Source of the DNA: Catajapyx aquilonaris
Taxonomy: Eukaryota
DNA: 56,436 nucleotides
Direction of reading: 5' to 3'
NCBI GenBank assembly: GCA_000934665.2
Contig: JYFJ02002469.1
Location: 1-56,436 of the forward strand
Part shown: positions 30,591 to 52,900 of the stretch, piece after piece
Position numbering within the stretch: position 1 is the first letter of the stretch
Layout: each line of letters begins with the position of its first letter
Translations under genes and position numbers: made by a program
The notes under the pieces: model-generated
The model's input: the letters and a program-made list of their open reading frames with translations, nothing else
The model's database searches: none
What the model was told of the DNA's origin: nothing

Positions 30591-33500
30591 ATGGTGTCTC
30601 CAGTGTCGAGTGATGGCCCCAAGTGCGCGACACAAGATGACCAAGGGTTGTCGGACCTGGTCAAAACTACGCCCAAGTTGGTGTACCTCTTGACAGTGCT
30701 AAGTGCCATTGGTGGGTTCCTCTTCGGGTATGACACCGGTGTCGTGTCAGGTGCCATGCTACTTATACGGTACATGTATTATCCATATCTGCATGCAATA
30801 ATTTGAATCTATACAATGAGTTCAATAACATCTAGGTCATATCTGCTGTTAGAAATTTCCAGATATTAAACTTACTCATTATCACTTTCGTCTGTACATC
30901 ATTCGTGACATTTTTTCAAGGTCACTAGACATGCGTATTTTTTAAAAAAAGGATTTGAACAAAAACAATGCGGATATCCCGCTCATTGACATATCTGGAA
31001 TTTCTATTTAGTCGATTGAAATCAGGAATGTTATTGCAGTGAAGCCTTCAACTTGGATGACACATGGCACGAAGCAATTGTATCCGCAACAATAGGCGCA
31101 GCCTGGATTTTTGCACTTGTTGGAGGCTTCCTCGCAGGTATTATGGCGAATATAAACAATAACTGCGCAGACTGATATGTAGTTTTTTGCAGATAAATTG
31201 GGACGTAAGCCGACAATTATTATTGCCAGTATTGTCTTTACGGGCGGTGCTGTCATCATGGGCGTAGCCAGATCCAAGGAAATTCTTTTGGTTGGACGCA
31301 TAATCGTCGGAATCGGAATTGGTCAGTTGGTGTTCTATACTGGTAAAAAGGTCACTAACAGCAGTCAATGCCATTATTATACTCGCAAATACTGTTGTAT
31401 TCTAATTTCGTCCCGGATAGACACATTAGAAGCGCATCTCAATGCCATGCCTTTGTTTATATTGGAACCTTGTGTATGTGATCGACCCGGGATTGACTAT
31501 GTAGGAAACTGATCAGTCTATGAAATCATATATTTGGTCTCAGACCTTGAACTTTATACATCAGTTGTATCGCAATTGGCAAATTGTCGTCTTGGTAAAA
31601 TTACTCTAACATTTTTAAAGCCTGCAACATTAGGAGCATTGTGTTTACAAAAGGCGAATTTAATCTTAACAAACTTCCTCAAGGAAAATAAATAATGAAA
31701 TCAGTGATAACATTACCTGTACTTATATTATAGGATAATAGCACGTGCATGTACGGTGTGACGGTAGGTCATGGTAGGTGATAATAGTGTTTGATGTTAC
31801 ACATTATATCTATAGATAGGAAGAATGTATGTCGTGATGTCTGACTTTGAATGTCTTAGATGACGCAAACGATTTAATTTATTTATTATTACTGTTTAAA
31901 ATTCAGGACAAGGACGAGAAATACCTTCATGAATTCAGTATTGGAGGCATTTCAATTACAAGGTCGAGAAAACATTGTTGTAATCACGATTCCTGTCGTG
32001 TTGTTTCCTCAAGAGCGTTTAGCACTTATGGAAAGTACAATTATTTGCACGAACCGTACAATTGGCTCTGTGAATATTTATGATGTGATGTTACCAGAAG
32101 GTTCTGACATTAGTAGTCAAGGTGCAACTGATCTAACAATCGGAATGTTTGTTACGGGTATGAAGGTATGAAAAGTAAACATTTTGCAAAGTTTAATCTC
32201 AGCAATGTGGGCAATTCGGTCAAGTCATGCTTACATAATAATTGCATAATCCAGATTATCGGTTGTAATGTTGAAAGGTCATGAGTTCATGCTCATTGGG
32301 ATGACATCCACATCGATGATAATGAGATGTCCTTCATTATTGTTGTTATGGCATGCATTATTATTATGTGTCATAGGCTTGGCCAGCATGAGTGTACCTT
32401 TGTTCATCGCCGAAGTCTCACCACCTGAGGTCAGAGGTCGTCTAGTGACCCTCAACAACATTTTCATAACAGGAGGGCAATTTGTGGCCTCCATTCTTTG
32501 CGGCGCTTTTGTCAACGTCGATGAAGGTTGGAGGTGAGTCCTGTCATTGGGTTGGGTTCACACGAATGTTTTTGTCTGTGTCGTTGTAGTTGGGGACTAC
32601 CATTCAGCTCGTGCTGATTGCCCCATCGGCCAAAAGACGAAGACGTTCGTGTGAACAACAGATTTTTGGACATTTGGAAACATTCCAGGTACATGCTAGG
32701 TCTTGCTGGTGTCCCATCCTTAGTCCAACTGGTGGGCATGATGTGGATGCCCGAGTCGCCCCGGTGGCTGATGGCCCAGGGTCGACTGGAAGAAGCCAGG
32801 GCAGTGCTGAGAAGGACCAGGGGTGGGTCTCAGGCGGCGGTGGACGAGGAGATCGAGTCCATCCGAATAACCTGCGAGGAAGATCAAGCCTGCAAAGAAG
32901 ACGAAGGACAATCTTCATACACTATTGTCCGGATCCTGACCTCCACTGCGACCCGGAGGGCGCTGGTGCTTGGCTGTGTCTTGCAGATGTACCAGCAGAT
33001 TTCGGGGATTAACACGGTCATGTAAGTGGCCATCGCTGGTTGTACGCTGTATCACTGAAAGAGCATGTCTTGTGCAGGTACTACAGTGCCAGTATCATCC
33101 GTATGGCTGGAGTCAACGACAACTCGATGGCCATCTGGTTGGCAGCCGGTGTGGCTGCAGTCAACTTCGTCTTCACTTTCGTTGGGTTGTACCTGGTGGA
33201 AAGAGCAGGCCGAAGAAAGCTGACCCTGGGGTCACTGGCAGGGGTGGTAGTGGCACTGGTATTTCTAGCTGTGGGCTTCCAGCTGTCACATTCGTACGCA
33301 CCTCTCGTGCAACAACCGGTCAATGGACAGGGTCACTGCTCTAGTGCTAGGTAAGTGCATAAATTCCGCTTTCTCTTTGTCTCCTTGTCCCTGAGGACAA
33401 AGCGACGTCCGTGTGAACCCAACACTGAATGTTTCAGGTCATGTTCCGACTGCACCTTCATGAGTGATTGCGGCTACTGTTACGAGAGCTTGTCAGACGG

Positions 33501-35880
33501 AGTGGCGAATAGCTCATGCCTGCTTGTTGCTAAAGGTCATGAGGACTCATTCTCCACATCGGGAAACTGCAGCCACCCCGTACTACAACCCTGGGTATGG
33601 GCCTATGGGTACTGCCCGTCCCAATACTCATGGATCATAGTGGTAGCCCTCTGCGTCTACCTCTTCTTCTTTGCACCAGGTGAGACTGCCAGTTTGTTCT
33701 ACACGATTCGACAATGATCCCCACTGTTTCGTAGGTATGGGACCAATGCCATGGACCATCAACTCCGAGATTTACCCTCTTTGGGCGAGGAGCACCTGCA
33801 CATCCGTGGCGACCTCGGTTTGCTGGATGTTTAATCTTCTGGTGTCTATGACCTTCCTGTCACTCACAGGAGCCCTCACCCAATACGGTAAGCCACTCAA
33901 TTACAAACAATGAATAGCAAGAACCATCCCATTTTTGATAATAGAATGCATCACTTTAATGTGTAAAGTTGTAAGTACAAATTATACCGCCTTGGTTATA
34001 TCATAATAGGTGAAGCGGTACCTGGGTTGAGACAGAGCTTGAATCCTCCTGGACGGACCCACCTGAAAAGAATCATTGTTGTGAAACAATAGCAAATGAC
34101 ATGAGTACTAATAAGGCTAATACTTACACGGAGCACTGCCCCTGGGATAGGTCGAGGCACTGAGAAAGGCATCTGGAATTCCGGATGAACTTTCCTCGGG
34201 ACTGCCAGCCTCTCTGTCCTCTGGCTGCACTTGTACGGAAGCACTACTTTCTTGACACGCACGATGCTTTCACTGCTATCCTCCTTTGCACACAAGATTG
34301 GTACATTGTATTGGTTCCGGTCGTGGCGCGGTATCAATTCTGATGGAAGCGTTGAGTTCCGTCGAAGTGTGTCGTATATCTTCTCAGCTCGCGTACGGTT
34401 GTCGTCTCCTGTCTTGGGAACATCTGGTATGCAGAGGTGCTCAAATGGATTGTGCTTGAACTCCAACTGTCGTGCCAGCTGGAACGGTTTGCCTATGACG
34501 GCTCTGGGGTTGTCAGAGAACATCTTGCACTCCATGATTCTCTTGACGCTTGGACAGCACGTCACGTCTATGAAAGACTTTGACATCACTTTCGGCTTAC
34601 GCGGCTTCTCTGCCAGTTCCACTTTCCGTAGAGGCCCCAGAGTATCAGGCTCCGAGTACATTACAGACGATGTCTTCATGCCTAGCACATTCTTCTCCAA
34701 CGTTGGCGCCTTCAGGATCATGATTGGAGGTTCAACATGTGGCGGCTTAGATGGTTCCTTGTGAGGCTTCTCGTCCTTCTGTTTAGGTGGTTCCTTGCGA
34801 GGCTTCGCGTCCTTCTGTTTAGGTGGTTCCTTGTGAGGCTTCGCGTCATTCTGTTTAGGTGGTTCCAAGTTACGCTTGGTCTTCATGTCCATTTGCAGAG
34901 GCCTACCTCTTGCCTGCCGCATAAGCATATCAGCTTGGGTCACAGTCTCCTTGAAGACTTTCTCGAGGTTCTGGACTACGCCCGATTGGACTCCGACCAG
35001 TTTCTTCGGGCGTACTGCCAGCGTCACCAGTAATCCCCGGATATCACTTTCGTCCCTGTGCTTGGACAGTTCTATGATGCGGTTGGTTGGCACGTAACTG
35101 AGGGTCGCCTTTTTCACTGTCCATTGCGGGTCTTTCGGGTGGGAGTAGTCCTTATGTATTGGCCGAGGCTTGGAAAGTCTTGCGGTCAGGTTCTCCTGCC
35201 TCTCCCACAGCTGCTTCTTGGTCATGCCACCAAACGCGACGTCGTTGGAAAGGAACTCGATATCGTCGCTGTTGACGACACTTTCAACCGCCCCATCGTT
35301 CTTCCCCTTGAGATTGATGAACCTTCTTCTCATTTTTCACCAGTTTTTTGATCCGTGAACTGAAGGGAATATGCTTGCCAGTAGACATGTAAAATGTAAC
35401 TACTGACGATTTGTAGGCAACACTGAAAGTCAACAACGCGTTGACTGTTGGGCATGACATCGCACCATGGTTACAAATGCAGGGTAGGCAACACTTGACA
35501 TATTTTGGGAGCCAACAGCCACTTGTATGCAGGATCTCATTTCATCTTGACTACAATAAATTGTGATGTCACTAGCAACTGTTAAAGAACTGAGGTTACC
35601 ATAATTCACAACTGTCATTTCAGGTGCTTTCTACCTGTACGCATTCCTGGCTTCTACTGGTTTTGTGGTCCTGTACTTGCTCCTGCCAGAGACAAAAGGT
35701 GTCAGCTTGGAGGATATGGAGGTCCTCTTCTCCCAGAGCTGGTGCTGCCCTGGAGCCAACCTGCAGAGGACGGAATCTGGGAGCCTGCAAGAGACCAGAC
35801 GATCAAGGGACGGATCGCAGTACGTACCAATTCCTGGAATGAACCATAGATCTCATCTCTCGAACCCTGCAAGGATGTGA
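30591..35880 (+). CDS. SLC2A13: Proton myo-inositol cotransporter (HMIT), copy 2
   Basis: Exons 30591-30769, 31040-31137, 31193-31321, 32377-32533, 32689-33021, 33078-33350, 33438-33679, 33735-33887, 35624-35880. Same intron positions and sugar-porter motifs as copy 1, with no lesions seen. Confidence 0.93.
33982..35333 (-). CDS. THEG-repeat (testicular haploid expressed gene / sperm microtubule-associated) like protein nested antisense in HMIT2 intron 8
   Basis: Exon 35333-34128 (donor CGT|GTAAGT) and exon 34062-33982 ([26 protein letters not shown]). Repeated R-x-x-x-L-[AS]-x-P-[RK]-type motifs ([41 protein letters not shown]). Lys/Pro-rich. ATTAAA signal at 33960-33955. Confidence 0.72.
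34750..34866 (-). repeat. Coding 36-bp tandem repeat, three copies (EPPKQxDxKPxK)
   Basis: [12 protein letters not shown] / [12 protein letters not shown] / [12 protein letters not shown] in the 445-aa ORF. Confidence 0.9.
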
Positions 35881-36586
35881 CCCTTATGGCTCTTGCTGAC
35901 TCTTTGTTTGTTTACTGTTGCTTCACCAGTGCAAATCTTTCGTAGCTCCTCCTCCTCCTCTCAGCAATAGGAATTTTCCATTATGGCATAATGTGAAACA
36001 CTAGTTGCTTTGTGTTGGTGTATCTACCTGTACATTCATTCTTAAAGTGATCATATTTCACTATTCTCTTTCTCTGTTTGTGTTTTGTTGCAGTGGTAAT
36101 GGCAAGGTACTGTATGAGTTGTCCATCAATTGCGTTGGGCTCTGCACTAATTTCTCATCCTTTTTAAAACTTCATAATTAACCATTTTGCATAGAACAGA
36201 GTTGCCAACACAATCCTTGGACAAGTGCAATAACCTTTATTGACGCTAATCCGAATTTTTGTTTAAACTTTTCAGAGGCCAAGCTGGAGACATGAACGGC
36301 CATGCTTCTGTAGATTCCAGAAAGCATACTCAAGAAGAGAGATTTTAAGTATAGGTCATAATCAGCAGGTCCCAGTCTCGCTCCGAAGTTGCGTTCATTG
36401 CTCCAGCACTGCATGTTGCAATAAGGACATAGTTAGGGCTGGTTGCTTGAAATCAAATGAGATAAAATCTCTGAATCCATACAGGTCATACTGTAATACC
36501 AGCCCTTAGTAACATCATCATTACCTCATGAAATGGTCTGGACATATAAAGGGCATCCTAAGTGAGTGAACTATTTGTTGAGCTAA

Positions 36587-37945
36587 AGGGTCTCCCAAAG
36601 TTGATTCTGGCTTGTTGGTCTAATTGACGATGTCACTTGCCAAAGGGCCCAAGTCCCAAAATTTCGAAAAACCATTTTATTGCGGATTACTACTCTTGGA
36701 GTCGGGCCTCACAGCCCTGGTGAAGATGAAGAGCCAAAGTCAATCAGAAGTGCCTTAAAATTGAATGTGATGATTTGTGGTCCATTGCCTGCTACTGGAC
36801 TTGGGCCCTTTGGCAACTGACTGGACGTAAATCAGATTCTGATTGATGTTGATAATAATTAACAGAGTATGGAAATAAAACTGGTCACACCTTTCTTTGT
36901 AGTACTACTTTATGAATATGATATGTTCAGATGGACAGCAGGACAGGCATGACTATACCAGTGAAATTTGCAACATGAAATGTTGGTGCGGGTGTTCAGT
37001 TGCCAAAGGGCCCAATCCACTGATTTTGACCTTCAATAGACTCCGACCCATTGCTTTCTACTAGATTATGTTTATGCCACTAGGTGTGTATAATGGTGCC
37101 CTATTTCCTATTAGCATCATAAACTGCAAAACTCTGAATGGAGCAATTATGCAGTTTTTAGTCTCTCCTGAAAAATTTCACCTCGTGAACTTGGGCCCTT
37201 TGGCAAGTGACGTCTTCAATTGTTCTTACATTTCTGTCAAGTTCATCCCACAAAAACTCGACATGATTCAAATAGAGTTCAAGTCAGGTGATTGGGCCAG
37301 TCATTCCATATTTTCCAGTTCCGTTTTCTTCTTATTTGCTAAATAGTTCCTGAACAACTTCGAGGTGTGTTTTGGGTCATTATCCTGTTTTAGGACATAG
37401 CTATGACCAACCAGTCTCATGCCAGAGGGAATAGCAAGTGATTGGAAAATGCAGTGGTAACCTTCTTTGTACAAAATACCCTCAATTTGCACAAGGTCAC
37501 TCACCCTTTTCCCTGCAAAAGACCCCCACATGATGACTGAACCCTGTCTGTGGTTTACAGTTGGTTCTACGCATTGGCTCATCATCAGCTCACAGGTGAG
37601 CTCCAAAACATAACCTGTCTCGCTTCCCGCACAAATTTTGAACTTGGACTCATCTGTGAAAAGCGCCAGAGCATTGTTACACACTCCAGAGGTTTACGAG
37701 ATCAGCAACCGATTCTGATTGTTCTGCTTACATAGCAATGGTGTAAATGAGCAGCTAAGCAACCCTTGAGACCACGATCGAGCAGGTGATGCTTGGTAGC
37801 TGAGACTGATATTGGGATAGCTCACATATCATTCGCGTCTTTGCGAATTTTAGGGGCAGTGTCAGTCCTGTGGAGCTTTCTTAGGATGCAGATGAACTTG
37901 TCCTCCCTATCTGAAGTGACTCATGGTCTTCAGAGCGAATGCAGT
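36587..37945 (-). mobile_element. Degenerate Tc1-family transposase fragment (interrupted by the 36626-37217 element)
   Basis: RP*VTSDREDKFI, LFTDESKF, PTVNH-GSVIMWG, QDNDPKHTS, AQSPDLN, LWDELDRNVR and QLWETL motifs with stops and frameshifts. Confidence 0.9.
36626..37217. mobile_element. 592-bp non-autonomous TIR element with 4-bp AATT target duplication (possibly Sola1-like)
   Basis: 29-bp TIRs GA(C/A)GA(T/C)GTCACTTGCCAAAGGGCCCAAGT. AATT at 36622-36625 and 37218-37221. The empty site is visible in the paralogous Tc1 segment at 39356-39359. Confidence 0.88.
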
Positions 37946-38009
37946 TTGAAGGACCTTGAGGAATTTAACATTCTCCCTTTTCAAATAGTCCTCTTCCCCT
38001 GGCTCCTTT

Positions 38010-39240
38010 AGAAGGTACTTATAGTCTGTCCAATTTTCTGAGGCATTTATTCTGGCCCACCTTCCTGTCTTTCAGCTCATTTAGCAATCCTATCCTCTTT
38101 TCCTCCCAAGTCTTTCTCTGCCACTCTTCGTCATCTTCAACACCCCATTCCCTTTCCTTTCTTTTTAAGTCCTTCCACTGTAACTGATTTTCTCCGCTCA
38201 TCCTCATCACATCCGTCCATATCGTCCCCAACAGAGTGCCTTGATCCATACTCTCAATTTTGGCCATCCAACGTAATTCCCCGCCTATTGCCGCCACCTC
38301 CACCTCTACCACACAGTAAATACAATGTACCCTGGGGTATTTTTGGTCAACCCGAGCTATGGTTTTATAAATCCCTCCTGAACACTCTCCAGTACTGGCC
38401 CCACCTTCAATCCCCAAATCTCCACCCCTTGCAGGAGAATGGTTCTGACCAAGGCAGTGAATAAACTCTTGAACACTCCCCATTGCTCAATTTTAGCCAC
38501 AATTTTATACCATCTATTCAATAAAGAGATTCCTCTATAATTCCCCACTACCCCTTTGTCCCCACCGTCTCCCAGCGAGGCATGGTAACGTCTCGGCTTG
38601 CTGTGCGGAAGGTCCCGGGTTCGATCCCCGCCCAGGAGTTCCCCTTCGCCTGCATCAGGAGGGTCTCTGACCTGTGCCTTGGAGGTGTATGGCAACCTAA
38701 CCTCCAGGGAGACTGCACATGACTCTTTTTCAGACTTTGCACTTGCGTCTCCTCCCCAGAAATCCCCATCTTTACCCCATAGCCTTTCATCTTCGCACCA
38801 GAGTTGAAGAAAAATTAAAGAAAATTGATGGAAAATGGTTGAATTCCACCCCCCTCCTATCACATGGTAAAGTTTAAAAATATATATTTTTTAAAGTGCC
38901 TCCCTCCATTTCTCAGGGATTTCCTCTCTTTCCCAGATATAATTAACTAACCGAGCTACTACTTCTACCATCCTATCACCACCACCTTTAAAAATTCATT
39001 AACTATACCATCTGCCCCTGGCGCTTTCCTTCGTTTTTATCTCCTTATACTATCTTCTATCTCCTGGCCTGTTATCTCTCGATCCCACAAATTCATGCTA
39101 TCTTCTCTATTAATTGGGAATGCCACAGTGGTCCTACTCCTTTCCCCTTCCAAAAGTGCTACGAAGTGGTCTACCCAGGCCTGGTCAGTGATTGACTTAT
39201 CCACAGCCTGTCTCCCCTTGACCGTCCCTCTGTCAATTGT
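38010..39240 (-). mobile_element. Degenerate, internally deleted non-LTR retrotransposon (LINE ORF2) fragment
   Basis: WVDHF...REITGQEI...KAPGADGIVNEFLK, GDKGVVGNYRGISLLN..YKI and FTALVRTILLQGVEIWG motifs. The RT core is missing and stops are present. Confidence 0.85.
38564..38750 (+). mobile_element. tRNA-derived SINE inserted in the LINE remnant
   Basis: A-box-like CAGCGAGGCATGG and B-box GGTTCGATCCC. Interrupts the LINE frame next to the GDKG-NYRGISLL motif. 3' boundary approximate. Confidence 0.65.
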
Positions 39241-39267
39241 TACCTGCCAACCCACTAGAACAGGTAA

Positions 39268-39676
39268 ATATGGAATGGCCAGCCTAATCACCTGACTTGA
39301 ACCCTATTTGAATCGTCAAGCTTTTGTGGGATGAACTTGACAGAAATGTAAGAACAATTAGACCAACAAGCAAGAATCAACTTTGGGAGACCCTAAAGGA
39401 GTGCAGGAATAAAATACCAGTCGAGACTTTGCAATACCTTGCCTCCAGAATGCCTAGAATATGCAAAGCTCTAAATAAGGCCAAAGGCGGGAAATATGAA
39501 AAATTCAAAATTTAACTATGATAAGGAAGTGTGTATAGCTTTTCATTAGGTTTCTTAAAACACACTAAATTTTGATAAAATAAAGCTTATTTTATGTTTC
39601 TGAACTTTATATTAGAGCTTTAATGACCAAAAAATCATGTTTATAGGGGTGATGCTAAACTTCTGAGCAGAAGTGT
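39268..39676 (+). mobile_element. 3' end of the Tc1-family element with right terminal inverted repeat
   Basis: EWPA*SPDLNPI, LWDELDRNVRTIRPTSKNQLWETLKECRNKIP...LASRMPRICKALNKAKGG. Ends ...CTTCTGAGCAGAAGTG followed by TA. Confidence 0.85.
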
Positions 39677-40409
39677 AAGTTTATATATAAGATGTATACA
39701 CTGTATTAATCCAATCATTACCAATCATTACCAGCTTCTGGCATTTTGACATCCTTTGCAGTTGTTGTTGTGTCACCATTTTGAGCTGGAAAGTTACATG
39801 ACATTTCAATGAAGCACTTGTAATTGTCACCCATATCATTTACCTTTCTTTGCCGGTGTCAATTCTTCATTCAGGTAATAAATTGTAATCGATCTCATCA
39901 TTTGAGGACATCCCATCATTGATCTCTTCATCACCCACGTGCACGTCACTTGCATCTCCATCTGAATGAAGTTTAATTTTTAAAATACATTACAGAAATT
40001 TTATGAAGAATATTATACTGCAGCAGTTCTGAATTTGTCAATAAAAATATTTAAATATTATTATTGTTTATGGTCGCTAATAAGGTTGTATAACATAAAA
40101 GGTTTCATATTCACCAGGATAAAATAGAGGCATAAGGCTAAGGTATGGATCCTGCCCATCTGAATGTCGTTGTAGTAATGTTGAAACGTTATTAAATACT
40201 ATAAACCCTGATTTACATATATTGGAAAATATTATTACTTGTGCTTTGGCGGTATTAGATCCATCTTGGCGGGAGAATCAACAACCAGCCAACTACATAA
40301 GTGAAACTGATATATTTGAGAAAAACCTGTTCTTTCATCCCAATAACAGTTATAGACAGCAACTTTGGTAAGCGGTACTGTACACGCAGAAGCTATTGAT
40401 ATATCAATA

Positions 40410-40482
40410 CAGTGGAGCATCGATTATCCGAACAGAGTCTGCCAAGGGGGTGTTCGGATAACTGATTGTTCGGATACCCGAA
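40410..40482 (+). mobile_element. pogo/Tigger-like terminal remnant
   Basis: TA|CAGTGGAGCATCGATTATCCGAAC followed by inverted GTTCGGATAA sub-repeats. No matching second end found. Confidence 0.5.
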
Positions 40483-41225
40483 CTATGAAACTAAGAAACA
40501 GTGATATTAACCACACTGCACTTACTTTTTTGGGAAGACGTGTTGATGACTGTCACAACTGAAGGACAAATTACTTGTGCTGTGAAATAAAAAGGGAATA
40601 AATTGGAATGTTCCATACTGGCATCACAGGTATCAGACTCTATCAGTATCTTATAATTATTAGCTATCCGCAAACAAAGAGTGGAAAATAATACAGGGAG
40701 TTCCTGATGAGTAGGTCATCCGGGTGCCAGAAGATAAATTCGAATAAAACAAGTACAAAAGCTAGTGGAAAGGAATGTAAAGGAACCAACCTGTACCAAT
40801 GGAGAAGACATCAAAGATTCTGATTTGCCCCCTAGACATGTTCCGCAACATGGCCATGCACAGATTTGGCTTGCTGTACTGTATATGCCAGAATAGCTTA
40901 CAGCCTTACGTGGCAAGTGCCAAAGTCATTTTTCTTGTAAGCAGTGACTTTTTGAACTGAACTTACTATTAAGCAAATCGGTACTTTACTTCAGATACTC
41001 CTCAGAATTATTATGCTACCTAACAATTAGCGACTTATGCAATTTTTAGGGGGATGCCTTTAAATAACATCATAGAGGCAAACTTTACATCCGCAGCAAA
41101 AAGGGCCATGGTCTCAAAATGGGTAAGAATAAATGAAGAAACAGCTTACTGCATCTCAAATCAGAATCACTGATTGCTACCACTAGAAGTAATACAGTTT
41201 GAATAGTGACACAAATACCTTCAAT

Positions 41226-42973
41226 TTATACATCTTCATCTTTCTCCTGAACAATCCCCCATTCTTTGCATACATTGTGGAGAATGCAACATGACACAAT
41301 AATTTTGCATGCTTTTGATGGATCATACTCCAGTTGACCTTTTGACAAGTCAATACACCGGAATCTTGACTTCAACTCTCCTGCAAAGAGAGATGTAAAA
41401 ATCTTCTTTCATTATAACTACGAGATCACACTTACCTATGGCATGACTGATGAATTGATGCCCCTTTTTATGTCGCTGATTATACCTGTACTCTTTTGCC
41501 GTGGTTGGGTTTCTGACGGGTGTCAAAATGTATGGCTGCAAAGGATATCCTTTGTCTCCTAGAAGAGCACTCCTGGGCTTGATGACACCTGATTCAAAGT
41601 TGTGCTTGATTCGTGACTGATCCCACACATATGAATTGCTGCAGCTCCCTGGCCATTTTGCTACGACACTCAGAATCTGCCTCTTGGCATTGCATATCTG
41701 TATGAGAAAATTAATTTTGTCAGATCAGTCCGGATCAGTCTAATACAGGAGGTAACAATTTCAGTTATAGATGTTTCACTGTGTCATGCAAAATAATGTG
41801 GACTCTTCAATAGCACCAAATGATATGCAGCATATATCTGCGTAATGCCAAAACTGATGGCATAACTCAATATTGACATTTTTCTGGGTTGACCCATTAT
41901 TGCATAACACTGTCCAATTATCCCTCCGCTTTCGATCACTTCTGTGTACGTTGACTGACACCAAGTTCAACATATGTACCAGACACTACACATGGGTTTG
42001 CTGCTATAAATTAATTAATATATAACATGTTTTGATAATCTACGTATGTAAGGCAAAGTTTCTTTGTTTTTTGTTTTCCCCTGGCAACAGCACTTAGTTG
42101 GTGATGGAAGCAGGTCGTGTGAAGAATGGGCTACTCTGCTAGTCATGCATAACAAGAAAATAAAAATCCAAATTTCTAGGATTGTCTCATAGTAATGGAA
42201 GCATTGACAACTGCCTGGGAATGTAAAATTTAATTGAAGAAAAAAGATTTAACATAAACACTGCCTGAACTCGCCAACGTGCTTCCCTACTTCGTTTCTT
42301 TCTTGGGATGGCCTGCATTATTGCGTGGCTCTGGTTACATTTCAATACATACCAACTGTACATTGATGGAATGTGTGGACATCTTGTTGACATATGCATG
42401 TGGGTTCACACTTGGGGCTCTTATCTGTACATGGGTAGTGTCAATGGCACCCACAATGTTGGGAAGTCCACATGTTTCCTTGAACCCTGCCTGGAAAGAC
42501 GCAAAATGCCATCCATAATTAATGTGCATAACTAATAATTAATGGGATTTAATATCGTTACACTACGGTACCTTTGTCTTTTCCACTTCCTCCATGGGAA
42601 AGGCAACCAATTTGGTCATACCCTGCAACAGGGCATTCACAACCTGGTCCAGGGCATGACTAACAGTTGCTTGGCTGAACGGGTGATGATCGCTGCCGTC
42701 CACAATTGCTGCCTGGTATCCCCCCAATCCAAAGTACCTGAGAGCAATCAAAACCTTCTCCTCGACAGACAGTGCCCGAGGGTTGGTTCCCCGTGGAGAG
42801 AGGTACGGTCGAAGCTCATCGCAGAGGAAGAACACGGCGTCCTTAGGGAGGCGGTACATCAGGAGGAAGTGATCATCAGGCAGCTCAAAGGCATTCCTGC
42901 GGTCCCTCAGGACCCTCTCCCTACGGAAGTGGAGTCTCATCATCACGTCCACCACGTACGCAGCAGCCAACAT
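41226..42973 (-). CDS. Harbinger/PIF transposase-derived protein (HARBI1-like), four coding exons, catalytic Glu absent
   Basis: Exons 42973-42572, 42490-42353, 41697-41436 and 41380-41226 splice in frame. Motifs YRL, LSVEEKVLIALRY, SQATVS, GAIDTTHV, HSINVQL, KWPGS, LLGDKGYP, EYRYNQRH, LKSRFRCID, CCILHN. Probable non-coding first exon ending at 43145 (GAG|GTAAGC) spliced to 42982. Confidence 0.88.
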
Positions 42974-43275
42974 CTCAGGCCTCTGTGATCACAGACACTG
43001 CATGCAACCAACCTAAAACGGTCCAACCGGTGTAAGTGAATGTTCACAACTTCACATGCAGGCAGCTGTGCTGGGCAATGATACACCCTGCACGTGCAGC
43101 CACTGCAACGTTTAGATCTGTCCCGCACTGCCCCCGAGGCTTACCTCCGCCAGCCTCCAGAACCAGCCACAACTCTAAAGCCGGCTTGAGTTGCCTCGAC
43201 TCGAGTTTGTCTACATCGCCCGCGCCATGTTTGCAAAGCCGCGGGGGATGCTGGCGTACGAGAATGCATCTGTCC

Positions 43276-43291
43276 TCAGCAGATGGCAGCA
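43276..43291 (+). promoter_or_regulatory. CTCF-like motif
   Basis: TCAGCAGATGGCAGCA is close to the CCASYAGRKGGCRS consensus. Motif match only. Confidence 0.35.
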
Positions 43292-43521
43292 CCATCGCAC
43301 ACCCTGATTTAACATTAAAGGAATATTATACGCGTAAATAACATTGCAAATTCTCCCATGCAATGTGCAAAACGTATTGTACGGCAGCCTCTTCCCGGAC
43401 ATACCATCCGAATGGGATAATATGAAATGATGAAAACGTGCGAGCCGTTCATAGCGTGTGCTGAGAGGTGCGAGCAGGTCCCTCGTCGGAATGACAAGGC
43501 AGGAGGTGCAGCTGGGAACTC

Positions 43522-43686
43522 ATACTTACCTGGCACGGGACATACCTTGATCACCAAGGCGGTTGTCCCAGGGCGAGGCCCTTCCATTGCACTGCGGTTG
43601 GGTTGACCCCTGCGATTATCCCAAATGTGGATAACTCGAGTGCGTTATTTCTGGTAGTGGGGGACTGCGTTCGCGCTAACCCCCGA
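43522..43686 (+). ncRNA. U1: U1 spliceosomal snRNA
   Basis: 5' ATACTTACCTGG; helix H GCAC/GTGC; stem I GGGACA/TGTCCC with GATCAC loop; U1A loop ATTGCAC; stem III TTATCC/GGATAA; Sm site ATTTCTGG; stem IV GGGGG..GCGTTCGCGC..CCCCC; about 165 nt. Confidence 0.97.
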
Positions 43687-44003
43687 TCAACCAATCAAAA
43701 GACAATACAATTATCTGGGGTCATGCGGTACCTGCCGTATGCCCACGGATGTTACCCATTCATTGGCGTGATCTCGGTTAACCCGCGTCACGTTCTCTCC
43801 GATAATCTCACTTATTGTCTCATTGTAGGTTATGTATTTAATCACAACACATCGAATCTGGTCTGGACGAACCGTGTACTCAACAAGAATGATGGATTCA
43901 AATAAAGCGGGCCGGCCGGCATGTCAGGGTTGGAAATACCAACCCGCGCCTTATTTCCAGGCGTGCACCACAATGGTGGCAGTCGGAGGCGAAGGCTTGT
44001 AAA

Positions 44004-47000
44004 ATGCTCCTGCGGTTGCTTGGTCGGCTGAAGAACTGGGTGGTGTGGTCGTGGACGTACCTCTGGGCCTTCTGGTTCCTGCTGGTCGTCTTCGTGCTCT
44101 ACTACCTGCGAGGACCGCTCAAAATCAGCGAGAACATCAGCATGGGTGAGTCCCCCACTGGCTGTCAGGCCGTCTCTCGGCCACTCCAGGCCCCTACGTA
44201 GTATCCCGTTCATGCTGCGTGACCTCCAGGTTGTGTTGACTGTTGATGGGGTCAGAGTTCATGGTGTAGGATCAGCTGTGGCATGTCACGCCATGTTCGG
44301 TTACGTAAGTGAGGAAGGGTTGGATTCAAAATGCCCGCTTCTACGTGCAAACCTGCATCAAAGATGGCGGCCACTGCAGTAGCCTGCTTTATTACTGTGC
44401 GTATGGCCGTACCCGCTGGGGGTTAACTAGAGGTCAACCCCTGACATGTCCTCGCCGCCTTCACCAAACATGCTGGCCGCCCCTGGGCCGCCCCCAGTCC
44501 ATTTGACTCCATGTCAAGTGCTGCCACCTTTGAGGCAAGCAATAATGCTGTGGAGCACGAAGCCTGTAATAAAACACACCCTGTCCCTGGCTGACCTCGT
44601 TTACTCCCGTCAATCACACGTACATCAACCGTGGATACTTTTTTTCACCCCCACTGAGACGGAGGGGGGTGCTTCGAGTGTGGGCGGGAAAGCAGCTTTG
44701 CCCTTTGTGTGGAGAGGTCAAGGGGTGTCGGCCACGGAGAGACAACGGGGCAGGCAACGGTACTCGTCGGTGTCGACCGCGTGCCACCGGTACAGGAAGG
44801 GTCTGCCAAGGAGGGGCTCATCCAGTGGCGGTGGTGTTGCCGCGTCGGCGCAGGCGGAGTGGGGCAGCCAGCACCCCTCCCGGAGGCGGCACAACAAGGA
44901 GGGAGGAGTGGGAGGTATCGATCCCGCATCCTCCAGAGTGCCATCGATCTGCTGCTGGTGGTGCTCGAGGAGGGCTGCTTGGGAGAGACCTGCTCGGGAT
45001 AGGACTCGGATTCGTCTTCGGGATCAGTCCAGGCCTGGCCATGTGGGACTGTAAGGACAGGGAACTCGTCTTGGGCTCTTTGGACGGGGGACATAAGCCA
45101 CGAGAAACACTGCACTTGGCAATGTTGCTGGCCGGGTGGGCTTGCCATAAGGACAGCTGTGGAAGGGATTTGGGACTCTTCGTACAGGTTGTCATAGGCT
45201 GTTAATGCAAATTTTAGAGTTGCAACTAGGTCACAGATGCTGCAAATTCGCTGGGTGTAGTCACGAGCCAGCGTTATGGTACTCTCCAATGTAATCATGC
45301 AGTTTCACATTGGGGTGGAGGCATTAGCAGTTTTGCATTGAACTCGTTGCAGCTGCTGACCAGTCACTATGGCCACTAATGCACCAGTGATTAATAGTAA
45401 TGCTTTTAATGTAGCAACCGTGAAGGCTGAGGATGCTATTCATGAAAATGTCACAGGTGGTATATTGGGCCAAATGATGTTCATTGTTCTTCTTGGATTG
45501 CTGCCATTCAGCTGCCACTCTCTGACAGGAGTAATACCTGTTGAAGCGGCATATTCCTAAAGAGATGTGATACGCTACAACTCATGCCATGTACAGTAAT
45601 AGTCTTATTATCAGCATTGTTGTCATTGTGATGCCATCAGCACCAACAAGTTCCAATGTGATTATAACAGAAGGTCCTGGTAACGTGAGTGAGCGTTGCC
45701 TCATTTGCTGATCAGTACTCTGCTTTTATTGTGGCATAAAGGATTTGGTTGACATGTGTCAATGGATGATACCTTTACAATTTATTTTACTTTCAGTAAC
45801 TGTTTTAATGGGATAAATTCCCCCTGTATGCAACAATGTGCTGATACATGTGGCTAATGTTTTGTGTTTTGCAGCAACAACTTTCCTGAGCACCCTGACA
45901 CCAAAATTCTATGTGGCGCTTACTGGGACTTCCTCACTCATCTCCGGTCTCATTTTGGTATGAATATAGCTAGTGTTGTATGCTCAGGTAAAGGCAATTT
46001 CAATATTGATTTCATTTTCAGATATTTGAATGGTGGTACTTCCGGAAGTATGGGACATCCTTCATAGAGCAGATGTCTTTGAATCACCTGAGCCCATGGA
46101 TCGGAGGTGGTGAAACTGCAGGTGCCACTGGGGGGGCCAATGGAACAGGAGGGAACGGTGGGGGGTCGTCTGGATCAGGTGGAGGAGGGGCTGGTAGCAG
46201 TAGCGGAGGAAGTTCTTCAAGCAATGGAACAAGCAGAGGGCAATCTCAATCTGTACCAGGTGATTATACAGGATGCTGCCCAAATCTGCAGTAGAGGAGT
46301 GGGGTCAATGGGAGTGAGAACATGTTGGTTTGCTCACTTAAATTTCAACTTGCAATATGTGCTATAAGGCTTCCTCTGCAGTATGGAGTGTTTTTAAATC
46401 TCTGCTGTAGACATGGAGGTAGCTGGTAATTATTTACTGTCTTAAAAATATATTTTTGGAATGTGGAAATGGAAACAATTTGGTGGAACCTCCAAAGTGC
46501 TGTCATTAGTCCAGATGTGCCCACAATGTAATAGTTTTGTGGAAAGTCTTTTTTTTCTGGTAATGCTTTAAGATGTAAAACATCTGTTGGATACATGCAG
46601 TCCACCTCCTAAATACAAAAATACTCCAATTTATAAAGAGAAGCCCAAACTGTTGGTTAAATCACCACACTCCAGCAACCCATGATCATGACCAACTGGC
46701 ACTTGCTAGTTATATTGTGAAAATCTACACAAAGTATTGCATCAAGATATTTATTGTGGTTGACTTTACAAATTCTATGTCATTCAATATTACAGAGTGC
46801 AAAGTATGGCACAACCCACTGAATCTCTTCCGAGGATCAGAGTACCAACGCTTTTTATGGGCAACCAACAAGGAGCCCTTGACATATTACGACATGAATT
46901 TATCTGCGCAGGATCACCAGACTTTTTTTACTTGTGAAGCTGATTCTTCTCGACCAGAATATGAAAGTGAGCATGGTTTTATCATTTCATTTTACCTGAG

Positions 47001-48659
47001 AATAAGATGCTGATGTCAACATTATCTTCCTGACAAACAGTAATGCAGACAGCATGGCGAGAGCGTAATCCAGGGGCAAGGATCAAGGCAGCGAAGAAAG
47101 CGCTTGAAAAGAATCCTGAGTGTGCCCCTGCATTGATTCTGCTTGCTGAGGAGGAGGCCACCACCATACCGGAAGCCGAGAGAATTCTGAAGCAGGCACT
47201 TAAAGCAGCAGAGGCCAATCTGAGAAGGTCACAACAGACAGCACATCATGGACAAGTGCAAGAAGCAACTCATAGTGAGTGAGACTTTTATTTAAAATAA
47301 TTGATATGTTGCTAGCAGTGATAATATCTTTTTCTTGCAGGAAGAGATACAAATGTACTCATTTACATAAAGAGGCGCCTGGCCATGTGTGCAAGGAAAC
47401 TTGGCAGACTTAAGGAAGCTATCAAACTATTTAGAGACGTGAGTTTGAAGAATGCTTCTCTTGAACCTTTCATTTTTCACATGACTTGTACTTTGAAGGC
47501 TGATGTGGGCTGCTACATTTGACATAAATTACCATGCTTATATTTGCCTCTTTTTTTCCCAGTTGACAAAAGAAGTACCAGCAATGCTGAGTGTCCTCCA
47601 GGTACAAGAGAACCTTATTGAAGCCCTGCTGGAAACGGGTGCATATGCAGATGTACAGGCGGTGCTGGCCAAGTACGACGACATCTCCCTCCCCAAGTCA
47701 GCAGCGATCTGCTACACGGCTGCCCTCCTCAAGGCGCGGGCAGTGGCAGAGCGCTTCTCCTCAGATGCCACCTCGGGGGGTACCCCTTGTGCAGCCCTCT
47801 CCTCGGGTGGGCGCAGGGGATGCTCTTCTTCCTCCAATGGCTGGGGGGGTACCTTAAGTGCTGCAGAGATGGCAGCGGTGGAGGCGGTGCACCGGGCTGT
47901 GGAATTCAACCCGCATGTGCCAAAGTACCTCTTGGAGACCAAGGCACTTGTTCTGCCCCCAGAGCATGTGCTGAAGAGGGGTGACTCGGAGGCAGTTGCA
48001 TATGCGTTTTTTCATCTTCCTCACTGGAAGAGGGTGGATGGGGCACTGCATCTGTTGCACTGCACCTGGGAGGGAACCTTCCGGATGATTCCCTACCCAC
48101 TGGAGAAGGGACATCTCTTTTATCCATACCCCACCTGTACAGAGTGTGCTGACAGGGAACTGTTGCCAGGTGAGGATGGAGTTAATAAGTTTTTCTTTTT
48201 AAATCAGGGGGCATAATTGTAACTGACTGAAGTATATAAATTTGTAAAATTACACCTAACCAGTCCACGTTCTTTCCCAGCTTTCCATGAAGTGAGTGTG
48301 TATCCCAAGAAGGAGCTCCCTTTCTTCATCCTGTTCACAGCTGGACTGTGTTCCTTTACGGCGCTGCTGGCTCTCCTCACCCACCAGTATCCAGAGTCCA
48401 TGGGCGTTATGGCCAAAATGGTTGGTTGATTTTCAAGTGCGAAATTTCCTTCTGCCAAGAAGTGATAGCTTTCTAAAAAAATCCTTTCATGTTACTACAA
48501 ATTTTTTAGAAGTTGCGGCTTTGATAGGCTCCAGTGTGCTGAACGCTACTAATTTTTCCACAGGTGTTAGGTTGGGTGTCAATGCCATTCCATTACATTC
48601 TGGACAAACTGGAGGCAACCCTGCCTGCCAACCTTCTTCAACATCTCTCGAGAGTGTGA
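44004..48659 (+). CDS. ST7: Suppressor of tumorigenicity 7 homolog
   Basis: Exons 44004-44145, 45875-45957, 46022-46259, 46796-46966, 47041-47274, 47341-47438, 47563-48169, 48281-48420, 48564-48659. Motifs [102 protein letters not shown]. Confidence 0.96.
45041..45050 (+). CDS. ST7: Alternative first coding micro-exon of ST7 (M-W-D-S)
   Basis: GCC ATG TGG GAC T|GTAAGG is phase 1, like exon 1. Splicing to 45875 gives [16 protein letters not shown], which matches the insect ST7 N-terminus as I recall it ([16 protein letters not shown]). Confidence 0.82.
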
Positions 48660-49980: not shown

Positions 49981-52900
49981 ATGGACCTCAGCCAGCGGGC
50001 CACCGACCTCATCAGCCAGTTCCAGGTGCTGCAGGAGGCCAGGGAGTACAGCTACAGGATCTTCCAGGAGTAAGTTTTACAGGCGGAACCAGACCGAGTC
50101 ACCTTGGCCGCTGCCCTTAAAAGAAGCAGTGTGCTGTTCGTTATAGGCTTCGACAGACGTAAGCAATATTACAGGGATTTTGCATTTTAAGAATGGGCAC
50201 CAACGTTCCATTCTCTATTTTTGAGCAATTGTGCAAAGCTTGTGGAAATTGCAGGTACCTATGTGCCCGGTTTATGGCAAGTTGTACGTTGATATCACTG
50301 CGGAATTTAATCTTGTAGGAAGGATGGGAAACTCGTGTTTCGATCATTGCTAGAATTGATCAGGGGAGGCCTGGGGCTTCGACCTCCACAGTTCATATGC
50401 CAGCCAATAGCAACTGATAGCGGCTGACCTACAAGGGTCGGTACACCTCCCCACATCCTATATTATGTCTGAATGACAGGGTTTTATGGGATTGCAAACA
50501 ATCTCCCCTCTGCAGTTAAAACAATGGCAATCGTAATGCAGATGTAGGTGCAAAGGAGAATGAAAGTTACAGCGCCATGCAAATATTCAGAATTATTATT
50601 GTGATATAACCCGAAACAATTTTCCAAATCTGCTGCCTCAGAAATTCTTCATTCTTCATTGGACAAAAAAGTACAAACAGATCTCCATAATGTGACAAAA
50701 TATTAGTCTGAAAAATTGCGTGAAATGCACAAATTGCAGGAAAAAGTGCAGGAAGCATGTAGTTTGATACAATGACAGCAATGCATCGAGCTATGCCACC
50801 AGCCGAACGTTTTGCATTTTACTGCGGAGGCAAATATGGAAGATTCGGATGCCACAGTTTCATAGCCGCAAAGCCTATTGCTGCTTGTGGCCGTTTAGAA
50901 TTTTGCAATTTAGCATGCAGTGGCTTACTGATATTGATAATTTGGAGGTGATATAGTGGAACAACTTACAGTTGGTGTACAGGTTCAGTGACTGCTTTTT
51001 GAGTGCAATGACTTAAGACACTCTTGGTGTCAAGAGCTAAACTCTCATGTAATCGTCTACAGCAAATCTAGACGAAAGCAGATATATCCAGATCAGGGGT
51101 ATCTGACTTGTCTGTAATGTTATGCAGCAATTAATCCAGCTCTTCATGCACATATGCTAGTAAACCGGATCAAAATTATATATAGTGATTCACATGATTT
51201 GTTCAAAATGCCAAGGTTAAGTGAGGCTCAGTTTAACGCGACCTCAGCGTAATGTAATCGAATTGTTTTAAAAACATCGAAGGAAAAAATTCCAAAACAT
51301 AAGGATTCTTTAAAAATAATAACAAGCACACCATAATGAAGCTGAGGATTTTACTTTATAACAGTCCCACTTTTGAATCTTTTTCATATCAGTAATTATA
51401 GCAATAGGCTTCTCGTGTCTTTTCACCAATATCTGATATATTAGAGGTGGGCTGAAGGACTGAAATTCTAGGTCACGTCAGTTAGGGCACAGACTATTGG
51501 TCACTACTTTATCTTCGAAAACAAGGTCATTATGTTGATGTGGAATAAGTGCGTCATTTAGTGACATGTCTTTCAGATCATTTTGATACATTTAATCTGA
51601 TTCCGGGACTTTTATCTCGCATATTTCTTGGACATGGTGTAGGTCAGGGTTCATTTGTCAACAGGATAGATATTTTTTCCACGAATTCCCAGGGTCAACC
51701 CTGAAGGTTATGTTTAGCATTTATAGATACTCTGGTTAAGTTTTCTGCATAGATATTTCTGATGATAAATTTTTTGATCCTTGCTTGATACAATTGAGGA
51801 ATGTTGTGATTGGCTGAGGGCAGACTTGCTTTGAAATTTACTCTATTAAAAAAAGGACCGACATCATTGTTCACATTAATAAGTAACAATGATAACAAAG
51901 TATGACATAAGTGACTGAAGTTGGTCAGTAGATCCTCTGCCTAGCATAAATGAACTGCTGTTAAAATATGAAAAACCCTGATCTTGAATACGTAATAGGG
52001 ATGGAGATATTTTTATTTTGCTTATGAGGGGGTGTTGGGATGTTGAAGTGGGGGCTGAGTGTAATACTCCTCTTATATAATGCCATAACCTACCACAATG
52101 TTGAGTAATGTTGAGTCTTACTGATAAAGTTGGAACAGTTTCAATACTTGTGCAATAACATACAATATATAAATTCCAACTTTCATCATCACTGCCAGCT
52201 TTTCAATGACATCACTTTTGACATAAAAACAGAAGGTCATGATTTTCAAAATGTGGCCAAAGAGTGTATTGTTGGCCCTGGAGATCTGGTTTCATTTTAT
52301 CACTTGACCAAACCTTTGTGTTTCCAGGGGTCACAAGATTTACCTGAGCTCAAGCCCAGAGTACGACTTTGTCCAGTTTCGTGCCCTGGTAGCTGGAGTC
52401 ACCCGTGACTTCAAGGATGTCTCAGAAGGTGTGATTAACATTGAGAAGCAGCTCCGCAGTGAGCTGGGCCAAATATCCCTTGCAGATCATGTTGCTTTTG
52501 TGCAGAATGCAGAGAAGAAGAAGCTGGAGCTGGTAAGGATTGAGATTTTATCACATTTCCTTTCCAATACACAAATGGTGATCAAAAAAGGGTGTTTCTT
52601 AATGACATTGAATAAATGGCTTCAGGGTATCAGCATTTTATGGGTAGTTCTCACGTGGGTAAGCATTCCCATTCATGGTATGCATCCTTTTTATTTGCTA
52701 AACCAGCGGCAGTATAGGTCTATATTCCAAGGTTGCAGTGAAAGTGTAATGCAAGGTCTGCAAGAACCAATCATGAGAGGGGAAAAGTTGGCATTTGTAA
52801 CTTTGTCACAACTTGTAATCATCTAGCAATGAATTAGATGAGATTGTTGCTGGGCCATGAAGTGAAATAGTTGCTCAGAGGCTGTGTGCACTTGTAAGAC

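Follow-up and report, generated by a model that had tools for sequence, protein, structure and literature searches.

PIF/Harbinger transposases have been converted into host genes on several occasions. In insects this process is recurrent, with DPLG1-7 in Drosophila, APLG1/2 in Anopheles, BPLG1/2 in Blattodea and further cases in Lepidoptera described in the cited part of PMC9710019. In Arabidopsis, ALP1 and ALP2 are accessory proteins of the Polycomb repressive complex 2 (PRC2), the Asp-Asp-Glu (DDE) catalytic triad of ALP1 reading DGA (PMC4671723), and HDP1, which belongs to the IDM histone acetyltransferase complex, has an incomplete triad (PMC5339849). HARBI1, whose partner NAIF1 binds it, is reported only from jawed vertebrates in the passages of PMC9392472 cited here. 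Among crustaceans, Eriocheir sinensis carries 39 DDE_Tnp_4 or 'HARBI1-like' genes, mostly with 0-1 introns and with three in 1 of the 39 (PMC8697882). A limited literature search found no paper on a domesticated crustacean Harbinger gene apart from such family surveys (PMC8697882). The present study characterised a Harbinger-derived gene on the minus strand of contig JYFJ02002469.1 of Catajapyx aquilonaris (GCA_000934665.2), analysed over a stretch of 56,436 nt (the window). The gene encodes a 318-aa protein with two of three triad residues, and is regarded here, with moderate confidence, as a Harbinger transposase gene that was domesticated and is catalytically inactive.

Four coding exons on the minus strand, within 41226-42973, are joined by canonical GT..AG introns. 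Coding exon 1 (42973-42572; 134 codons, ATG at 42973-42971) holds the N-terminal helical domain and is followed by intron 1 (42491-42571; 81 nt, phase 0), which contains an in-frame TAG. Coding exon 2 (42490-42353; 46 codons) carries the first catalytic Asp in the motif GAIDTTH, and intron 2 (41698-42352; 655 nt, phase 0) encloses a high-copy repeat at about 41784-42101. Coding exon 3 (41697-41436; 87 codons plus 1 nt) bears WPGSCSN, the second catalytic Asp (LGDKGY), and the His and Ser that stand in place of an Arg and the catalytic Glu. After intron 3 (41381-41435; 55 nt, phase 1), the last coding exon (41380-41219) comprises two bases, 50 codons and the TAA stop (41228-41226), and extends 7 nt past the stop to a GT donor. 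Because intron 1 holds a stop in frame and intron 3 shifts the frame, the conserved blocks become collinear only after splicing, and the G-x-x-K-x-RF block is restored only by removing intron 3. The open four-exon frame with canonical splice sites, described in an initial annotation made from the sequence, was reproduced in its exons, phases (0, 0, 1) and GT..AG borders. The span given there, 41226..43145, likewise has exact ends, position 41226 being the final base of the TAA and 43145 the final base ahead of a GTAAGC donor.

Descent from a PIF/Harbinger transposase and the gene model itself are solid. Matches to the Pfam family DDE_Tnp_4 (PF13359, 158 positions) run collinearly across the exons, covering profile positions 1-36 in exon 2 (E 3.6e-4, 20.6 bits), 31-126 in exon 3 (E 1.7e-15, 57.4 bits) and 123-158 in exon 4 (E 9.9e-6, 25.7 bits); the exon-2 piece, taken alone at 20.6 bits, lies below the 24.8 cut-off. 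The exon-1 frame had no Pfam match. An exhaustive search with exon 3 among 1.84 billion representatives returned 2032 relatives at E<=1e-3, the closest representative sharing 51% identity over 87 residues and none reaching E<=1e-30. The spliced 318-aa model was then compared over its full length with the 46 exon-3 hits that are 300-420 aa long. Identity to these relatives does not exceed 39%, in 39 of the 46 the start Met falls opposite Met1 of the model, and internal gaps span only 1-2 residues, with no insertion or deletion at the two junctions within the catalytic core. At the C-terminus, the tail of the model falls short of that in the median relative (350 aa) by about 30 residues. In a quick maximum-likelihood tree of the 47 rows, the model fell within a 9-row clade (Shimodaira-Hasegawa approximate likelihood-ratio test, SH-aLRT, 98). 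The collinear DDE_Tnp_4 matches and this end-to-end alignment bear out the Harbinger ancestry assigned in the initial annotation.

The part of the protein that precedes the catalytic core may correspond to the helical, helix-turn-helix-like domain of Harbinger transposases. Exon 1 aligned with the N-termini of all 46, with R41, L78 and G84 conserved, and an AlphaFold2 model built on the 47-row alignment yielded seven helices at a mean predicted local distance difference test (pLDDT) score of 88.5. When exon 1 was searched against proteins 236-2000 aa long, one of 609 candidates matched, namely a protein of 242 aa from Ixodes persulcatus (39% identity), and a word search with exon 3 among longer proteins gave 3 candidates, none of them significant. 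Naming the exon-1 fold was attempted and abandoned as too weak, the best Foldseek E-value being 1.1 and the best VIA-align Z 4.9; the tied VIA-align rows include sigma region 4, SANT/SLIDE and helix-turn-helix modules. The ESM Atlas offered DUF8040 clusters at a score of 0.95, which is a lead only, and no solved structure was found by sequence search at E<=1. In Harbinger elements, a Myb-like protein imports the transposase via its N-terminal end (PMC9392472, citing Sinzelle et al. 2008). By analogy, the retention of this N-terminal domain fits a partner-dependent, non-catalytic role.

The clearest departure from the relatives lies in the active site. At a threshold of 80% conservation across the 46 relatives, 41 alignment columns qualify; 33 are unchanged in the model and 8 differ. 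The changes are R170 to Lys (Arg in 41/46 relatives), K171 to Met (Lys in 38/46), H200 to Ser (His in 40/46), D201 to Asn (Asp in 45/46), L237 to Ile (Leu in 43/46), R260 to His (Arg in 45/46), E264 to Ser (Glu in 44/46, and in 131/150 of the best relatives) and A297 to Ser (Ala in 38/46). Six of the eight fall in the set R170, K171, H200, D201, R260 and E264, a clustering for which a Fisher test (6/8 vs 2/33) gives p 1.6e-4, a value that is descriptive only, as the set was picked after seeing the data. Both catalytic Asp residues are kept, namely D151 (Asp in 39/46) and D228 (Asp in 46/46), and the triad reads D, D, S. Ser264 is homologous to the catalytic Glu, because the alignment is ungapped between an invariant Asn and the RFRC block. 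R260, now His, sits four residues ahead of that Glu, and the HD of the WPGSxHD motif has become SN. All four motifs singled out in the initial annotation are present in the form it gave, GAIDTTH and LGDKGY preserved and FISHAIG and WPGSCSN altered, and comparison with the 46 relatives confirmed the changes.

Such a combination is rare. The five positions H200, D201, D228, R260 and E264 are covered in 140 of the 150 best relatives and read HDDRE in 112 of them, whereas the model reads SNDHS. At least three of the five are changed in only 3 of the 150 relatives: P0126 (353 aa; KNDLQ), P0063 (166 aa; QNNLQ) and P0011 (86 aa; TNNTE). All three may likewise be dead or domesticated derivatives. As a possible closer relative of the model, P0126 was considered and rejected, being only 34% identical and no closer than the intact relatives.

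In rice, mutating one residue of the DDE triad of Ping drastically reduces transposition (PMC4671723, citing Hancock et al.). Since the catalytic Glu is lost here, and in view of that single-residue effect as reported in PMC4671723, the protein is predicted to be catalytically dead. This places it beside ALP1 and HDP1, which are also Harbinger descendants with a broken DDE triad and act non-catalytically in chromatin complexes (PMC4671723; PMC5339849, in the parts cited). ALP1 has lost the second Asp and the Glu, whereas the present gene has lost only the Glu of the triad, together with R260 and the HD motif, and ALP1, ALP2 and HDP1 belong to plant lineages and represent separate domestications. 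By analogy, the gene would work most like ALP1 and HDP1, as a dead transposase serving as an adaptor, yet it is surely not their orthologue.

Inspection of the surroundings yielded no sign of an intact transposon. Within 39000-45000, 12 inverted pairs of 14-19 nt were found and none brackets the gene, in agreement with the initial annotation, which had noticed no terminal inverted repeats (TIRs); no target-site duplication can be defined, because there are no element ends. Nor did any of 165 open reading frames (ORFs) match Myb, SANT, MADF or THAP families in Pfam, a search that a badly decayed remnant could escape. These frames comprised 13 large ones, 75 of at least 55 aa within 36000-46600, 43 of 30-54 aa drawn from 39300-41225 and 42990-43520, and 34 further ones of at least 110 aa from the whole window. 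The earlier remark that no partner Myb/SANT ORF was noticed therefore stands for the frames searched. When the model and the 46 relatives were used as tblastn queries, all 124 of 124 hits (E<=0.01) lay inside the gene, so no other Harbinger piece was found in the 56-kb window.

DNA run X1, possibly the source sample itself, served to assess copy number in the genome at an identity of at least 90%. Contigs with 0 differences covered 40486-41914 and 42047-43375, one per half of the gene. The summed depth over the exons equalled the depth of these contigs themselves (18.4 and 18.7), and no contig represented a second copy of the exons. The copy-number check proposed in the initial annotation thus returned a single copy at this identity. 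High-copy repeats with a summed depth of 5018-28152 in the same run occupy 40406-40511, just past the 3' untranslated region (UTR) exon described below, and 41784-42101 in intron 2; neither has TIRs or a second copy within the window. Of the "field of decayed transposons" that had been noted alongside the gene, these high-copy repeats are what could be shown; in three frames tried no Pfam family was recognised. None of the tested hallmarks of a mobile element was found at the locus, be it an intact triad, TIRs with a target-site duplication, a second gene or dispersed copies.

Evidence of transcription came from run X5, which derives from a sample and study other than those of DNA run X1 and whose kind is not on record. 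A 226-nt minus-strand contig of this run (depth 2.4) matches 41366-41219 with 0 differences, TAA included, and continues at 40579-40526. It holds 148 nt of the last coding exon, and 202 of its 226 nt are placed, leaving 24 nt unplaced. Its joint, 41219 to 40579, skips 639 nt with GT..AG ends on the strand of the gene; it occurs in 1 contig of run X5 and in 0 contigs of DNA run X1. A spliced joint that is present in run X5 and absent from the DNA run shows a spliced RNA that includes the last coding exon. The gene consequently reaches beyond the coordinates first assigned to it, through a 3'-UTR intron (40580-41218, minus strand; 639 nt, GT..AG) into a 3'-UTR exon (40579-40526, minus strand; 54 nt). 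A second 3'-UTR intron is likely to follow, because the 54-nt exon stops exactly at GTAAGT and the contig has 24 nt left to place. Exons 1-3 are without cover in run X5, which is uninformative for their expression. The check by RNA suggested in the initial annotation is answered at the 3' end by this one spliced contig, which leaves the coding junctions uncovered.

At the 5' end, a candidate 5'-UTR exon and promoter region (in 43145-43300, minus strand) is proposed from motifs, its 3' end being placed at 43145 by a GCGGAG/GTAAGC donor. The acceptor AG would lie at 42984-42983. In the frame of the coding sequence the exon has a stop and no ATG, and thus gives no extension of the protein. The likely 5'-UTR exon of the initial annotation accordingly retains its good donor and acceptor motifs and has no read support. 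Exon 1 falls within a CpG-rich island (42750-45000), where the observed/expected (o/e) CpG ratio is 0.6-1.1 vs 0.2-0.35 alongside. The island also spans a U1 small nuclear RNA (snRNA) gene and ST7 exon 1 (within 43893-44198, plus strand). Judging from this layout, the island is probably a shared divergent promoter region, with the gene head to head with U1 and ST7.

The domesticated genes of insects are among the closest known systems. Like these, the gene is derived from a transposase, has an intact frame, introns and expression, lacks TIRs and duplications and resides in an arthropod host (PMC9710019). Those properties used in PMC9710019 to recognise domestication that can be checked on one sequence are all present, namely an intact frame, the absence of TIRs and duplications, and expression, the latter as one spliced contig of depth 2.4 with the coding junctions uncovered. 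The absence of an adjacent MADF gene is paralleled in the cockroach genes and in one Lepidoptera case (PMC9710019). However, the insect genes are defined by orthologues in multiple species, conserved microsynteny and ratios of non-synonymous to synonymous substitution (dN/dS) of 0.1-0.25, whereas the present gene is known from one sequence; and BPLG proteins have 378-401 aa encoded in 2 exons, compared with 318 aa in 4 coding exons here (PMC9710019, in the passages cited).

HARBI1 resembles the gene in its domain layout, its origin from a transposase and its single-copy state. It differs in keeping its catalytic residues. The N-terminal end of HARBI1 contacts a Myb-like partner for nuclear import (PMC9392472). 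An orthologue of HARBI1 is nevertheless unlikely, because the cited part of PMC9392472 reports HARBI1 from jawed vertebrates only and the neighbouring ST7 matches arthropods best. The Eriocheir family belongs to the same Pfam family, in a pancrustacean genome, and some of its members have introns and expression; yet it is a multi-copy family, within which the cited part draws no line between transposons and domesticated genes (PMC8697882), whereas the gene described here is single-copy within the limits of the comparison in DNA run X1.

The state of the reading frame bears most directly on whether the gene was recruited or merely survives. The eight changed conserved codons are at least 11 nucleotide steps away from any codon for the ancestral residue, and the six active-site codons account for at least 9 steps in 18 nt (three for Glu to Ser, two for His to Ser). 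A neutral simulation of the 957-nt frame, with indels left out of account, kept it stop-free in 3.9% of runs when 0.1 substitutions per site were applied, and in 0.22% when the figure was 0.2. As the frame is open, the splice sites are intact and 33 of the 41 conserved columns are kept in spite of the multi-step changes in the active site, the sequence argues for selection having acted after inactivation, which we infer from these features and not from dN/dS. It is mainly the open frame, set against the steps in the active site, that favours domestication over an immobilised, intron-bearing Harbinger relic. Such a relic, its ends and Myb-like gene decayed, would owe its transcription solely to an adjacent active CpG-island promoter, with a frame open by luck or through recent death, and would have no host function. 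We consider it less likely than domestication. No orthologue emerged from the searches run, repeats lie inside and alongside the gene, expression comes from one low-depth 3' contig with one or more 3'-UTR introns after the stop, and crustacean Harbinger-type genes with 1-3 introns do exist, 22 of the 39 in Eriocheir being intron-bearing (PMC8697882). Against this, a period of decay that removed both TIRs and second ORF and placed at least 9 steps in the six active-site codons would be expected to disrupt a 957-nt frame as well; yet there is no internal deletion, the conserved columns are largely kept, and all four splice-site pairs are intact.

Two further explanations were weighed. The contig passes the stop, a 639-nt intron and a 54-nt exon that ends at GTAAGT, with 24 nt unplaced, and would suit a Harbinger frame that is part of a longer unit, either a dicistronic mRNA with a downstream partner or a non-coding or nonsense-mediated-decay-regulated host transcript that exonised the transposase. 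Dicistronic transposase-MADF transcripts have been described, as for Anopheles APLG1-APM1 (PMC9710019). However, none of 118 frames on either strand of 36000-46600 (at least 30 aa near the gene, at least 55 aa further out) is of Myb/MADF type, and the next large minus-strand frame is an ORF with THEG repeats about 5 kb away; a longer unit appears improbable. More improbable by far is an enzyme, transposase or nuclease, that still works with non-canonical residues, or else mobilisation of this copy in trans. Both catalytic Asp residues and most structural residues are kept, but Glu to Ser, Arg to His and HD to SN changes, the lack of TIRs and the lack of a second copy at the identity tested all speak against it, as does the drastic loss of Ping transposition upon one triad mutation (PMC4671723).

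Several observations weigh against domestication itself. Transcript support consists of one 226-nt contig of depth 2.4 that covers only the last coding exon, and what backs the three coding junctions is the alignment. Introns in the 3' UTR, after the stop, are also seen in targets of nonsense-mediated decay and in non-coding transcripts. With one such intron shown here and another probable, the gene could still be a relic that is non-coding or weakly expressed. Orthologues were found neither in the protein searches (39% at best for exon 1 and 51% for exon 3) nor in a metagenome scan; in the latter, for which exon 1 was the query, the 2 stretches that passed, out of 142, were rejected as too short and weak for orthologues (32-38 residues at 42-44%). 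The terminal branch of the model is of ordinary length (1.04 vs a median of 0.86), with no special acceleration or constraint visible, and copies below 90% identity may possibly occur elsewhere in the genome. As to the decay argument, it presumes an ancestor with consensus residues and uniform rates. Two of the steps, Arg to His and Asp to Asn, could be fast CpG transitions, and the Glu may have passed via Asp while the protein was still active; several steps remain even so.

Domestication would have taken the following course. A PIF/Harbinger transposase gene would have become a host gene that retained the whole transposase fold, with the N-terminal helical domain and the RNase-H-like DDE_Tnp_4 core free of internal deletions, while DNA cutting would have been lost through replacement of the catalytic Glu and of three neighbouring near-invariant active-site residues. 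A single copy, devoid of transposon ends and partner ORF, would have been fixed, its spliced transcript arising divergently from the CpG-rich region in which ST7 exon 1 and the U1 snRNA gene lie. By analogy with characterised Harbinger-derived proteins, the N-terminal domain may bind a Myb/MADF-like DNA-binding partner encoded elsewhere. That partner might carry the protein to the nucleus and chromatin, where, on analogy only, it would be an adaptor in a regulatory complex. A non-catalytic mode of action is the most likely one by the same comparison. The proposal of the initial annotation, an independent host-recruited factor, is thus supported in part, with respect to descent, the broken active site, the single copy at the identity tested, the lack of TIRs and of a second ORF, the introns and the spliced contig, its element of selection being indirect. 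A more specific version can be put forward only tentatively, as a possibility: an independent, lineage-specific domestication in an arthropod-like lineage that is poorly sampled, in which the fold was kept under selection while four of five near-invariant active-site residues were lost, with a divergent CpG-island promoter shared with U1 and ST7, a role as chromatin or regulatory adaptor, and possibly a multi-exon or dicistronic transcript with a partner.

The neighbours named in the initial annotation, U1 and ST7, do adjoin the gene. The U1 snRNA gene is full-length (43522-43685, plus strand; 153.6 bits) and constitutes the sole Rfam match in the window. Two divergent protein genes enclose it, the ATG of the Harbinger-derived gene being about 550 nt away and ST7 exon 1 starting about 350-450 nt further on. 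Over 43275-43375, DNA run X1 has a second, overlapping contig with 6 differences, and depth rises to about 39-49; the U1 unit therefore probably exists as several copies. ST7 exons were identified by Pfam. The ST7 exon at 47560-48180 (plus strand) is unusually long, with an open frame of about 239 aa and a 23-residue Ser/Gly-rich insert. Its best matches among named proteins are crustacean and insect ST7 at 71-77% identity, or about 85% outside the insert as counted from the alignments. Judged by ST7, the host is arthropod-like and has no close annotated relative. The insert is absent from the aligned named arthropod and fish ST7 proteins and present in P0156, a transcript-derived sequence that is 93% identical with the insert included; on the strength of this sequence, a related species is represented in public RNA data.

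Elsewhere in the window, a single 446-aa frame at 33996-35336 (minus strand) lies on the same strand as the Harbinger-derived gene, about 5 kb downstream, and contains repeats of the testicular haploid expressed (THEG) type (E 4.4e-12). A receptor tyrosine kinase-like gene is present as a tandem duplicate (20184-23412 and 26361-29722, about 6.2 kb apart), with Ig I-set and PK_Tyr_Ser-Thr frames (131.1 and 130.3 bits) and near-identical peptide stretches. Two similar copies of sugar-transporter (Sugar_tr) exons (10126-11347 and 32618-33717), about 22 kb apart, stand on either side of these duplicates, and a frame at 52308-52826 (plus strand) has a DNA repair REX1-B domain (E 3e-15). CpG depletion is mosaic over the whole window, the o/e ratio being about 0.8 except over several gene bodies, where it falls to 0.26-0.4, a pattern typical of invertebrate gene-body methylation. 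The window has 2 N.

The conversion of a Harbinger transposase into a host gene is a well-known kind of event, and without orthologues the present gene stays a candidate. Such conversions recur, yet a role is known only for the plant proteins ALP1, ALP2 and HDP1, in chromatin complexes, and the animal cases, HARBI1, DPLG and their relatives, are functionally obscure. If the domestication proposed here is real, an animal example with a destroyed active site would allow nuclease activity to be told apart from a non-catalytic adaptor function. A further gain would be a data point from a non-insect arthropod on how frequently, and in what genomic setting, Harbinger transposases are recruited, the setting here being a housekeeping CpG-island promoter.

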